Source of the DNA: an uncultured Bacteriovoracaceae bacterium
Lineage (GTDB): Bacteria > Bdellovibrionota > Bacteriovoracia > Bacteriovoracales > Bacteriovoracaceae
DNA: 64,000 nucleotides
Assembly (NCBI GenBank): GCA_964012805.1
Contig: CAXGUD010000015.1
Span: 23,419-87,418 of the forward strand
Direction: 5' to 3'
Position numbers: made by a program. This document shows positions 36,001 through 39,000 of the stretch, piece by piece. The stretch's first letter is position 1. Each line of letters starts with the position of its first letter.

Positions 36001-39000
36001 AATTAAACTATGCATAATGACAAGACCTCTTCTTTTCATTAGCTTGCCCCTTCAAATTGCAAAGAAACGAATTAAAATATAATGAAAATTTGGCTTTTAG
36101 ACCCCTATTTTACAGGATCTCACAAGAAGTGGGCCCTTGAATACCAAAAATACTCTTCCCATGAAGTAACACTTTTAACTTTAAAAGGTCGGCATTGGAA
36201 ATGGCGTATGCATGGGGGCTCTATCAGTCTCGCAAAAATGGCGCTTGATAAAAAAGAAAAGCCTGATCTTTTTCTGGCGACTTCTATGATGGATATAACA
36301 ACATTCTTGGCCCTAACAAGAAATACTTTTAAAAATGTGAAAGTGGCACTCTACTTTCATGAAAATCAATGGAGTTACCCACTCTCCCCCAACGATAATG
36401 ATCCCAAATACCAAAGAGATCATCACTATGGTTTCATTCAGTATGCTTCTGCTTTAAGTGCCGATGCTCTATTTTTTAACTCCTCATTTAATCTAGAAAA
36501 GTTTATAGAAGGCTCTTCAAAATTTCTCAAAAGTATGAGGGACTTTCGTGAATTAGATACAATTTCCACCATCAGAAAAAAATCATTCGTTCTTCCTCTA
36601 GGCCTAGACCTTAAAAAGTTTGATTCATTTCAAGATTTTTCTAAGCCTAGCGAACATAAAAAAAAATCTGCTCCATTAATTCTTTGGAACCATAGATGGG
36701 AACATGACAAAAACCCTGAGTTTTTTTTTAATACGCTCTTTAAACTTGATAAGGATAAAATAGATTTCAACCTGGCCCTTTTGGGGGAAAACAGAGGTGG
36801 CAAAGTACCACACGTTTTTAAGAAGGCCAAAGATTATTTTGGTGATAGAGTTCTTGTTTGTGGGCATCAAGAACGTTTCGAAGATTATGCCTCTTGGCTT
36901 TGGAAATCAGACATTTCATACATAACCTCTAACCACGACTTCTTCGGTGTAAGTGCGGTAGAGGCCCTATATTGTCATTGCTTTCCAATATATCCAAAAA
37001 GACTCGCCTACCCAGAACACTTTGGAGATGAATTTCAACACCACCTATATTCGGATGATAAAGAAGGTCAACAAGCTTTAAAAAAAGCCCTTTTAGAATT
37101 TCCTTTTTATGAAAAGATACCCTCAAATAAAGCGAAGGAGTATGACTGGAGCAAGATGGCCCTAATCTATGATAATAAATTTTCTAATTTAAATAGTAGT
37201 TGCTAATTTATCAATGCTCAACAAGAACGCTAGGGTCTCCACCACGTTCAACTTGGCAATAATCCCAATAAAGAGATACTCTTTTGCAGTTTTTTAATTT
37301 AACAACTCTAGTTTCAAGCTGATAAATCGCACAACCTGAAAACATTGAGAGTCCTAAAAACAGAAGCAATAGATTTTTAATCATTCTTCAAGTCCTCAAT
37401 TACCAGCAGAATTTATCAAAACACTTACGTGGACCATAGTGGTTGTAACACTTCTTTGAAAATAGACTACCCTCACAAATAGTGCCATTTCCTGGAAAGG
37501 TATAACGGCTTGTACTTCCGCAAGAACTAAGAAGAAGTGATAATCCTACAATTGCTAAAAATTTTTTCATGCTCTTTTCCTTCCTTTTAAGATTTACCTT
37601 ATTATTTAAAAATTAATTTAAATGAAGGCAGTCCGTTGCAGGAACCATAAAGTGGTAACGGTAACAAACAGCATCCGATCGCGATTTATCGTAAAAACGA
37701 TTTTGTTTCGAGCTACATGAACTCACCATTAGAGTTATCAAAAGTGTTGCTAGAAGGGTTTTCATAATGAAGTCCTTTAATGTTAAATTGAGCTTAAGTC
37801 TAACTAGCACAAACTTTAGCTGCTCTACAGGCAATCAGTTGCACCGTGTAATTTTTAAACCCTTTTAACCTAAGGAGCAGGAGGCTTTGCTTTATATGGG
37901 CCCTAATGAAACGAATTGAATCATTAAGTGGAGGGCTTTCAGGTTAATTTTTCAGACTTTTTTTTCAGAAAAAGGCGAAGTTTCGACTACTTAGGATATT
38001 TTTTCTATTTTTAAACAGACAATAGTTAGACAACTAAAACATTTTTTTTTATGTAAGGTCATCCTGATGTAATAAATAACCTCATTTCAAAGCCCAAAGG
38101 AGGTAAAATGCTAAAATCATTAAAAAGACTCTCTGCGAGCATCTTTTTTCTCTCTCTCACTGTTTCACCAAGTCTTGAGGCTTCAAGCGGCCGCCAGATC
38201 TTAAGACCTGTTGATAATGTCCAAATCGAAAGGTTTATGGGGCAATGGTATGTCATTTCTCATATTCCAACATTTATTGAGAGGAAGTCTTATAATGCCG
38301 TTGAGACGTATAGTATGAACGAAGATGGCCAAATTGATGTTACTTTTACCTATAGAAAGGGTTCTTTTGATGGCCCAAAAAGAAAATTAATGCCAAAAGC
38401 CTTTCTAAAAAAAGGTGGAAAAGCCTCAGAATGGGATATTCAATTACTTTGGCCTTTTTGGAGTGACTACCAAATCATTGACCTTGATGTTGACTACCAG
38501 TGGACTATCATTGGTGTTCCAAGTAAGAGGTATGCCTGGATTATGGCCAGAAAGCCTTTTATGGACAGAGACCTACATAGAAAACTTGTCATAAAACTTA
38601 AGGATTCTGGGTATAACATTAGAAAGTTGAGAATAGTCCCACACAAGTGGGACTAATGAATAAGCTGATTAGCTGAAGACCCTGGCTTGAGCTCTTTAAA
38701 AATCATTGCCACAGCATTATGGCTGTGGAGTGATTCAAAGTGCTCAACCTTAGCTTCCCAATAAAGAATATCTTCAACACTATCTAAAATTGCTGAAAGT
38801 CTTCGAGAAGCGTGCTCAACAAACATTGGGTTTTCCCCATTTAAAATTGCAAACGCTTGTTCATCTAGCCGCTTCACCATGCTTTGGGTTTCTGTTGGAA
38901 GGGCTACTTTCAGAAGATCAATAACTTTTTCAATAGTAATATCACTCTCATAGTCATAATGAACGGAAACGCTGGCTTTTGACCTTTGACTGTGGGCCGT

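Follow-up and report, generated by a model that had tools for sequence, protein, structure and literature searches.

To our knowledge, GluQRS (YadB), the glutamyl-queuosine synthetase acting on tRNA-Asp, is alone among bacterial enzymes in decorating the cyclopentenediol of queuosine 34 (Q34) once queuosine has been made. QTGAL (B3GNTL1) makes galactosyl-queuosine, a hexosyl-Q34, in tRNA-Tyr and is a GT-A enzyme with a fold different from that of QTMAN. Vertebrate QTMAN (GTDC1) is reportedly a tRNA-queuosine alpha-mannosyltransferase, as published by Zhao and colleagues in Cell in 2023. In the literature that we searched, glycosylated queuosine was described for animal tRNA-Asp and tRNA-Tyr only. 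According to the accessible text of a preprint, the animal modification tunes translation speed and shields tRNA from cleavage (bioRxiv 10.64898/2026.06.28.735034). A printed report of glycosyl-queuosine in bacteria was not found in the same literature, and a review from 2026 on RNA modifications in bacteria names, in its accessible text, Q and gluQ only (PMC13602947).

Here we describe a bacterial member of the QTMAN family, P0001, which is encoded in a window of 64,000 nucleotides (the whole stretch of DNA that was analysed) from an uncultured Bacteriovoracaceae bacterium. The host is a marine bacterium. The open reading frame is intact, runs from ATG to TAA and encodes 374 aa in two domains:

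36082..37206, + strand: gene for the QTMAN-family glycosyltransferase P0001 (ORF and translation, Pfam, AlphaFold2 model)
36085..36606, + strand: QTMAN_N domain (PF12038), residues 2-175 (Pfam, E 3.8e-56)
36634..37092, + strand: GT4-type C-terminal domain Glycos_transf_1 (PF00534), residues 185-337 (Pfam, E 2.4e-8)

The QTMAN_N match covers profile positions 1-168 of 168 with 190 bits against a Pfam cut-off of 25, and a whole-genome profile search recovered the same domain with 192 bits. This match is far above chance. E. coli, which makes Q and was the control in the whole-genome search, has no QTMAN_N. The C-terminal domain of P0001 scored 34.1 bits, above its cut-off of 26.4. P0001 shares the architecture of vertebrate QTMAN, QTMAN_N plus GT4 with a full-length Pfam match, but is shorter than the human protein of about 458 aa. 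By its sequence, P0001 is a genuine full-length member of the QTMAN family. Fused relatives of 656-2000 aa were not found, which the search itself graded as weak evidence, and the longer representatives P0203, P0190, P0200 and P0219 carry no extra Pfam domains. The initial annotation had recorded zebrafish QTMAN as a match in Swiss-Prot (31% identity, E 6e-51).

The AlphaFold2 model of P0001 has a GT-B fold (pLDDT 94.5, pTM 0.92). All Foldseek matches to this model were GT-B glycosyltransferases, and the nearest solved folds were retaining enzymes of families GT4, GT5 and GT20, namely glycogen synthase, GlgM, sucrose-phosphate synthase, MshA, BshA and PimA; a sequence search of the PDB gave no match. 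MshA, BshA and PimA, retaining GT4 enzymes with small soluble acceptors, have the GT-B fold (TM about 0.62-0.68) and the R/K plus E pattern of the donor site in common with P0001. However, their identity to P0001 is only 12-15% and their N-domain belongs to another Pfam family. In GT-B enzymes the N-terminal half generally binds the acceptor. By analogy, the QTMAN_N domain is presumed to be the N-terminal Rossmann half that binds the acceptor, and the Glycos_transf_1 domain is presumed to be the half for the NDP-sugar donor. P0001 is soluble and lacks a hydrophobic segment (maximal Kyte-Doolittle mean over 19 residues 1.08). It is probably a soluble, cytoplasmic and retaining GT-B enzyme of the GT4 type, orthologous to animal QTMAN. 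With a pI of 8.9 (9.6 for the N-domain), P0001 itself is basic, but its family generally is not, with a median pI of 6.24 and values above 7.5 in only 14 of 76 members, and we therefore dropped basicity as support for RNA binding.

An alignment of 76 QTMAN-family representatives defined 11 invariant and 30 nearly invariant positions, numbered on P0001, and all of them are present in P0001. Some of these positions fall into five motifs:

36115..36132, + strand: GSHKKW, residues 12-17 (H14 invariant; S13 and W17 nearly invariant)
36193..36207, + strand: HWKWR, residues 38-42 (W39 invariant; K40, W41 and R42 nearly invariant)
36352..36381, + strand: YFHENQWSYP, residues 91-100 (Y91, H93, E94 and Q96 invariant; N95, Y99 and P100 nearly invariant)
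36688..36711, + strand: NHRWEHDK, residues 203-210 (R205 and K210 invariant)
36940..36966, + strand: FFGVSAVEA, residues 287-295 (G289 invariant, E294 nearly invariant)

The motif YFHENQWSYP also served as the family pattern in the search for related loci. FFGVSAVEA is what we take to be the region resembling the EX7E motif of the GT4 literature. R205 and K210 are probable binders of the donor phosphate. K210 is the sole invariant lysine among the 76 representatives and is the probable counterpart of human K296. Exchange of this human residue (K296A) abolishes manQ, according to the accessible text of the preprint (bioRxiv 10.64898/2026.06.28.735034).

An enzyme acting on Q34 needs a host with queuosine-modified tRNA. 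The initial annotation had placed the gene beside a full queuosine pathway. Indeed, tgt, queA, queG, queC and queF are found in the same genome, but all of them lie on other contigs: queA adjoins tgt on contig C34, queG is on C63, queC on C3 and queF on C40. There are two TGT-family genes, and the TGT pocket is canonical (GGLSVGE). All four tRNAs whose anticodon is GUN (Asp, Asn, His, Tyr) are present, with tRNA-Asp-GUC in a single copy. Going by this gene content, the host is capable of making Q34-tRNA. Q-tRNA is thus common to the hosts of vertebrate QTMAN and P0001, but the host of P0001 is a bacterium predicted from its genes to make Q de novo. GluQRS gave no match above the cut-off in the host and is absent from all 237 genomes of the family; tRNA-Asp should therefore be free of GluQ in this organism. 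Mutual exclusion of GluQRS and QTMAN_N was considered and rejected. The own family gives no contrast for this question, and since both occur together in 5 of 50 diverse genomes, the two decorations of Q34 in tRNA-Asp, GluQ and the QTMAN type, are not mutually exclusive.

Taking these data together, we consider the chances about even that P0001 is a cytoplasmic enzyme that glycosylates queuosine 34 of tRNA, whatever its sugar and target tRNA. An NDP-sugar would be taken up in the C-terminal domain and held by R205, K210 and E294, and one hexose would be passed to the cyclopentenediol ring of Q34, at one of its hydroxyls, in one or more of the GUN-anticodon tRNAs. This glycosylation would follow the making of Q-tRNA by TGT, QueA and QueG. 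Q34 in tRNA as the acceptor, the chemistry and the target tRNA are what we infer for P0001, and GDP-mannose is proposed as donor by analogy only; we know of no donor-specific motif for GDP-mannose in the QTMAN family. The function proposed has the position and timing of the GluQRS reaction, but GluQRS has an unrelated fold (class I aaRS paralogue) and forms a glutamate ester. The product would be of the same kind as that of QTGAL.

If the family acts on queuosine in tRNA, its members should occur where TGT occurs. QTMAN_N had been counted in 31 of 236 genomes of the own family; our recount gives 35 of 236. The same note gave figures of 6871 of 189784 bacterial species genomes. Cultured bacteria with QTMAN_N include Geomonas diazotrophica Red69, Geothermobacter hydrogeniphilus HR-1, Portibacter marinus and Geoanaerobacter pelophilus. 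Nearly all QTMAN_N-positive genomes carry the expected genes: tgt was found in 34/36 of the own family and in 61/62 of a second phylum, and queA or tgt in 49/50 of a diverse set. However, tgt is near-universal in the own family (234/237) and in the second phylum (217/221), and the test is therefore uninformative there. It has power in Chloroflexota only, where tgt is patchy, and is weak as a whole. In Actinomycetota, too, tgt has a patchy distribution. We sampled 301 Chloroflexota genomes, with at least 90% completeness requested. QTMAN_N was found in 26 genomes, all with tgt (of about 259 tgt-positive genomes, a number in which 203 queA-positive, QTMAN-negative genomes, including the unpublished G312, G444, G447, G540 and G549, are assumed to be tgt-positive), and in 0 of 42 genomes lacking tgt. 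One-sided Fisher tests that ignore relatedness gave p 0.017 for the whole sample and p 3e-7 for the queA-less genomes (21/51 with tgt versus 0/42 without). QTMAN_N was found only where TGT occurs except for four misses, all of them draft genomes (G072, 84% complete; G129, 66%; G752, at least 85% requested; and G275, which also lacks queA), in counts uncorrected for phylogeny.

Among the 26 Chloroflexota positives, queA is present in just 5 and a clear queF in just 2. The QTMAN_N gene therefore tracks TGT, and hence modified tRNA, rather than the de novo route. The other 21 genomes are of a salvage-only type without queA and queF, and may represent few lineages. All 21 share one TGT class, with a "GG-SLG" pocket that lacks the Val clashing with the diol and with some 25-30 inserted aa. 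Of the 28 genomes that have this class, 21 contain QTMAN_N; of the 19 with the published queuine-type pocket (GGLAG), 0 do. In G539 the GG-SLG TGT heads an ECF-transporter operon. One Chloroflexota lineage combines a QTMAN homologue with a salvage-only, wide-pocket TGT, a layout as in eukaryotes.

The gene context does not point to queuosine. The initial annotation had taken a nearby folE2 gene as a hint in this direction:

38653..39609, - strand: folE2 (GTP cyclohydrolase IB), a neighbour only and not part of the feature (PF02649, E 1.6e-62; NF010200, 238 bits)

It begins 1.45 kb downstream of the P0001 gene on the opposite strand, with three small ORFs and a lipocalin gene in between. Such nearness recurs in 0 of 18 family relatives: 16 window neighbours, folE2 among them, were all missing from the region within 8 kb of the homologue in every one of the 18. 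Neighbour clustering of 78 diverse loci found no que or tgt gene within four genes of the homologues. When seven proteins of the Q pathway were run with tblastn against 104 loci, 1.40 Mb in all, there was one match, tgt in locus L062, which is at chance level, as about 2 would be expected by a rough estimate. The caveat that a link of gene context to tgt and que genes is missing, raised at the outset, holds. Membership in a queuosine biosynthesis operon is not seen, and a general neighbourhood pattern was absent from the 78 diverse, 6 Chloroflexota and 18 family loci. Genes close to the homologue include a sugar-1-phosphate nucleotidyltransferase in just 2 loci, both from Chloroflexota. At the P0001 locus itself, a scan for promoters and terminators gave nothing above shuffled expectation. 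The name "bacterial tRNA glycosyl-queuosine synthase" given earlier has lost its support from folE2 and from que/tgt context; it keeps that from full-length membership, the invariant residues, the capacity for Q-tRNA and the restriction to tgt-bearing Chloroflexota.

The neighbourhoods bear on a different reading, which we regard as rather unlikely but as one to be taken seriously: P0001 could be a GT4 enzyme whose acceptor has nothing to do with queuosine, such as a small-molecule thiol precursor, a phosphorylated sugar, or else a lipid or polysaccharide. Fold and N-domain would then be common to the animal branch, but the substrate would not. GT4 enzymes switch acceptors readily, and the recurrent neighbours, an alpha/beta hydrolase in 11 of 78 loci (directly downstream in 9) and a PrsW protease in 7, are not RNA enzymes. 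The nearest folds named above, the missing que/tgt context, the mostly non-basic family and the want of a printed bacterial glycosyl-Q fit this reading as well. Against it, the domain on the acceptor side is family-specific and the most conserved part of the protein, P0001 has no membrane segment, and QTMAN_N is missing from the 42 Chloroflexota genomes without tgt. Particular identities of this sort were rejected. The NCBIfam model for BshA, tried for a thiol-pathway enzyme of the BshA/MshA type, scored 16.5 bits against a cut-off of 273.7, and that for HpsP 20.9 bits against 550. An anti-phage defence enzyme (PADLOC, GT4-conflict) found no support either, with 0 PADLOC families matching P0001 and PF20706 absent from its Pfam matches.

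Dependence on tgt would equally be predicted if the enzyme glycosylated a free 7-deazaguanine compound (queuine or queuosine, the latter also as its phosphate) so that it can be stored, exported or salvaged, with the wide-pocket TGT of the salvage-only Chloroflexota then inserting the pre-glycosylated base. The salvage-only genomes, their shared TGT class and the ECF-transporter operon of G539 are in line with this idea. However, TGT class and QTMAN_N may go together through shared ancestry only, and in 48 of the 50 diverse QTMAN_N genomes, as in the host, the route is the ordinary one through tgt and queA, and the pocket is canonical. Such a pocket should keep out bulky bases, as stated in the accessible text of one paper (PMC11570991), and animal QTMAN, as far as the accessible source text goes, uses Q that is already in tRNA. 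We consider glycosylation of the free base improbable. Least probable, and only a slim chance in our judgement, is an RNA glycosyltransferase acting on another modified nucleoside of tRNA or of another RNA: translation genes do occur as neighbours (3 Marinimicrobia-type loci have TyrRS and SmpB, and 2 Desulfuromusa loci have ProRS), but each is confined to a single lineage, dependence on tgt is not predicted, and among the other bacterial wobble bases that bear a hydroxyl we know of none that would be an obvious acceptor.

Glycosylation of Q34 in tRNA, the reading that we prefer, is less novel than first suggested. Glycosylated queuosine had been announced as new in bacteria, and the printed record that we searched agrees with this, but in UniRef and the ESM Atlas members from bacteria are already listed, by homology, under the name "tRNA-queuosine alpha-mannosyltransferase". 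The accompanying caution that the family is widespread, and the finding not specific to this genome, was justified. What is new in this analysis is the phyletic comparison of Chloroflexota genomes with and without tgt. We tentatively propose, with somewhat less than even confidence, that bacteria of many phyla hexosylate Q34 and that glycosyl-queuosine is no animal invention. Since the Chloroflexota layout of salvaged queuine, TGT and QTMAN is that of eukaryotes, the eukaryotic system may derive from such a bacterial module. On this reading, the host may sugar-coat its own tRNA by means of P0001. If true, this would be a new bacterial wobble modification, spread over many phyla and present in a few percent of species. 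The phyletic result is the first argument other than homology that ties the bacterial QTMAN family to queuosine, and it draws attention to a bacterial lineage in which salvage and glycosylation are combined much as in eukaryotes.

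Fold and domain content of the feature's product point to a glycosyltransferase of the QTMAN family, named after the animal tRNA-queuosine alpha-mannosyltransferase.

36082-37206, forward strand: QTMAN-family gene, intact ORF, 374 aa

The full-length QTMAN homology claimed by the initial annotation was borne out by a Pfam search, in which QTMAN_N (PF12038) matched residues 2-175 (E 3.8e-56) over profile positions 1-168 of 168. The second Pfam domain is a GT4-type Glycos_transf_1 (E 2.4e-8). With the same protein, every NCBIfam model scored far below its cut-off, and neither PADLOC nor a PDB sequence search returned a match. 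An AlphaFold2 model computed from 76 representatives was confident (pLDDT 94.5, pTM 0.92) and consists of two Rossmann-like halves. Its Foldseek neighbours are retaining GT-B enzymes at 10-16% identity, among them glycogen synthase, GlgM, sucrose-phosphate synthase, MshA, BshA and PimA. Since a sequence scan revealed no hydrophobic segment, the protein is predicted to be a soluble cytoplasmic enzyme.

An alignment of 76 full-length representatives revealed invariant positions H14, W39, Y91, H93, E94, Q96, R205, K210, Y269, G289 and P305 (numbering of the host protein), which group into three N-domain motifs (GSHKKW, HWKWR, YFHENQWSYP) and two C-domain motifs (NHRWEHDK, FFGVSAVEA). The R205/K210 pair together with E294 resembles the usual GT4 donor site. 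K210 is likely the counterpart of K296 of human QTMAN, which is required for mannosyl-queuosine formation according to a preprint (bioRxiv 10.64898/2026.06.28.735034). Judged by sequence, the protein is homologous to QTMAN over its whole length, most strongly in the acceptor-side domain, and keeps the predicted catalytic-site residues; we regard the gene as real and as a true QTMAN-family member. The family is large, with 6188 proteins at E<=1e-10 among the scored candidates and 2510 cluster representatives at E<=0.001 (845 at E<=1e-30). Acidic members are common (median pI 6.24; above 7.5 in only 14/76). A Geoanaerobacter member carries the UniRef name 'tRNA-queuosine alpha-mannosyl...', and Atlas clusters with bacterial members bear the same automatic name. 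Databases thus already name the family, and the gene is not specific to the host genome.

The host genome (4.47 Mb, 130 contigs) contains a single QTMAN_N gene. The gene had been described as lying beside a full queuosine pathway; tgt, which adjoins queA on contig C34, queG, queC and queF are indeed found in the same genome, but all of them outside the window. Single tRNA genes are present for Asp-GUC, Asn-GUU, His-GUG and Tyr-GUA. From its gene content, the host is predicted to make the presumed substrate. The GluQRS model matched only a 507-aa GltX-like protein of the host, below cut-off, so that tRNA-Asp is expected to be free of GluQ at Q34. A second TGT-family gene of the host, cut by a contig end, lies outside the window (G000:C68:3-821, reverse strand); it keeps FDEC and has the pocket GGVSVGE. 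Two TGT-family genes occur in nearly every genome of the family Bacteriovoracaceae.

We asked whether the QTMAN gene depends on tgt. The Bacteriovoracaceae set (237 genomes, host counted) offers no contrast for this question: QTMAN_N occurs in 36 genomes and tgt in 234, including 145/145 of high quality, and the two QTMAN_N genomes lacking tgt are 84% and 66% complete. GluQRS was found in 0/237. A second phylum was likewise uninformative (221 genomes; QTMAN_N in 62, tgt in 217, one QTMAN_N genome without tgt). In a diverse test covering 50 of 80 QTMAN_N-positive genomes, queA was present in 48; of the two others, G268 carries a canonical tgt and G275 lacks both genes. QTMAN_N-positive genomes without a tgt match number four in all, and these are drafts. 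The idea that the QTMAN homologue replaces GluQRS was rejected, because GluQRS above cut-off co-occurs with it in 5/50 diverse genomes, all Desulfuromonadales-type or Thermodesulfobacteriota.

Chloroflexota was the only clade with statistical power. Among 301 genomes (requested completeness at least 90%), QTMAN_N occurs in 26 and queA in 208, a tally that includes five unpublished genomes (G312, G444, G447, G540 and G549), all queA-positive and QTMAN_N-negative. Only 5/26 QTMAN_N genomes have queA, compared with 203/275 of the others (Fisher p 5e-8), whereas a strong tgt is present in 26/26. Both queA and QTMAN_N are missing from 72 genomes, of which only 30 have tgt; the remaining 42 lack it, which puts QTMAN_N at 0/42 of the tgt-less genomes. 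The association of tgt with QTMAN_N has a one-sided p of 0.017 over the whole sample, with queA-positives assumed tgt-positive, and of 3e-7 among queA-less genomes, kinship being ignored in both. Clear queF was found in only two of the 26, both queA-positive; the 21 queA-less genomes yielded two marginal 28-bit matches and, by gene content, appear to be salvage-only. Where TGT is dispensable, the QTMAN gene thus occurs only together with it, whatever the source of 7-deazaguanine, which fits an enzyme acting on the TGT product.

An alignment of 57 TGT sequences separated the enzymes by pocket. The host (GGLSVGE) and the five queA-positive QTMAN_N Chloroflexota share the canonical FDEC... GGL[AS]VGE. 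All 21 queA-less QTMAN_N Chloroflexota have one other class, in which the pocket is one residue shorter ('GG-SLG'), Leu replaces the pocket Cys of FDEC in most, and about 25-30 aa are inserted past GGFQVFSL.

G531:C1:3265770-3267512 (locus L094): GG-SLG TGT
G539:C5:43500-62500 (locus L109): GG-SLG TGT

This class was also found in seven QTMAN_N-negative genomes and only in queA-less ones; the queF search among its carriers covered the 21 QTMAN_N-positive ones. A further 19 queA-less genomes have a TGT with 'DQPV/DHPV ... GGLAGDE', and QTMAN_N is present in 0/19. According to a Bartonella study (PMC11570991), queuine-salvaging TGTs typically have GG[LS][AS]G and preQ1-type enzymes GGLAVG, in which Val is expected to collide with the queuine cis-diol. 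The GGLAG class matches the published queuine pattern; GG-SLG is of equal length and likewise has no Val, but with Leu at the fourth place it resembles that pattern rather than matching it. An ECF-transporter operon in G539 begins with the GG-SLG tgt and also encodes CbiQ, two ABC ATPase domains and an S-component-like protein with a weak match to PF12822 (E 2e-5), an arrangement consistent with salvage. QTMAN_N occurs in 21/28 GG-SLG genomes versus 0/23 other queA-less tgt-positive genomes, a link that may be functional or may merely reflect shared descent. An additional TGT-like paralogue (371-375 aa), in which 'GFGFGGWPLD' replaces the pocket motif, occurs in several Chloroflexota genomes.

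G359:C359:4174-5847 (locus L102): TGT-like paralogue
G499:C1:3804330-3806000 (locus L103): TGT-like paralogue

Within the window, the QTMAN-family gene is isolated and starts 102 nt past a 7TMR-DISM/Hpt/HATPase sensor kinase gene on the same strand.

22085-23965, forward strand: secreted protein, 626 aa, paralogous to the following
24044-25210, reverse strand: secreted protein, 388 aa
27979-35979: pair of very large sensor kinases (Hpt/HATPase), directly 5' of the QTMAN-family gene
37211-37765, reverse strand: three tandem small ORFs (57, 56, 50 aa), filling the gap past the QTMAN-family gene

The secreted paralogues have stretches such as 'SPAEKYDL' and 'GLCHAWAPA' in common. A CHASE5 sensor domain is present in one kinase and a 7TMR-DISM domain in the second; a single-domain response regulator sits between them. 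The small ORFs, on the opposite strand in a 900-nt stretch, encode products that start like lipoproteins (…SGC / …SSC) and contain several cysteines; a lipocalin gene and then folE2 follow on the reverse strand. The proximity of folE2 had been offered as a hint, which fails: 16 genes neighbouring the QTMAN-family gene in the window, among them folE2, were looked for around the homologue in 18 relatives belonging to other genera of the family, and not one was found within 8 kb (folE2 in 0/18).

We fetched 80 loci from Thermodesulfobacteriota, Bacteroidota, Marinimicrobia, Chloroflexota, KSB1, Opitutales, Planctomycetota and Bacteriovoracaceae. Clustering of genes within four positions (78 loci with a callable QTMAN gene) revealed only two recurrent neighbours, both mainly from Saprospiraceae-type records: an alpha/beta hydrolase (11 loci; directly downstream in 9, Bacteroidota-type) and a PrsW protease (7 loci). 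Neighbours confined to single lineages are TyrRS with SmpB (3 loci) and ProRS (2 loci). In two Chloroflexota loci, L110 (G531:C1:1342000-1361000) and L112 (G499:C1:2408000-2427000), the homologue and a sugar-1-phosphate nucleotidyltransferase gene (PF00483) converge, with an Abhydrolase_2 gene two positions upstream of the homologue. A tblastn search of 104 QTMAN loci (1.40 Mb) with host TGT, QueA, QueG, QueC, QueF, second TGT and FolE2 gave one match, with about two expected by chance on a rough estimate; the objection already raised, that gene context provides no link, is confirmed. The match is a tgt in L062, from an uncultured Chitinophagaceae MAG; tgt and homologue are convergent and ~250 nt apart (locus positions 8001-10273). 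Homologues of the own family share 32-45% identity with the host protein and those of other phyla up to 47-50%, and the gene occurs in 20/69 genera of the family; both observations suggest gain and loss or transfer.

In the literature searched, no paper on QTMAN and bacteria dealt with bacterial homologues by title or abstract, and 'DUF3524' retrieved no paper. The first 300,000 characters of a 2026 bacterial RNA-modification compendium list only Q and gluQ among the terms searched. On homology and distribution, we give about even chances that the host enzyme glycosylates Q34 in tRNA. Points that weigh against this reading are the missing gene-context link, statistical power in a single clade whose test ignores phylogeny, the four draft genomes with QTMAN_N but no tgt match, the many acidic family members and the silence of the literature searched. 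A role as a bacterial Q34 glycosyltransferase is plausible and worth a direct test, for which cultured carriers of the gene exist.
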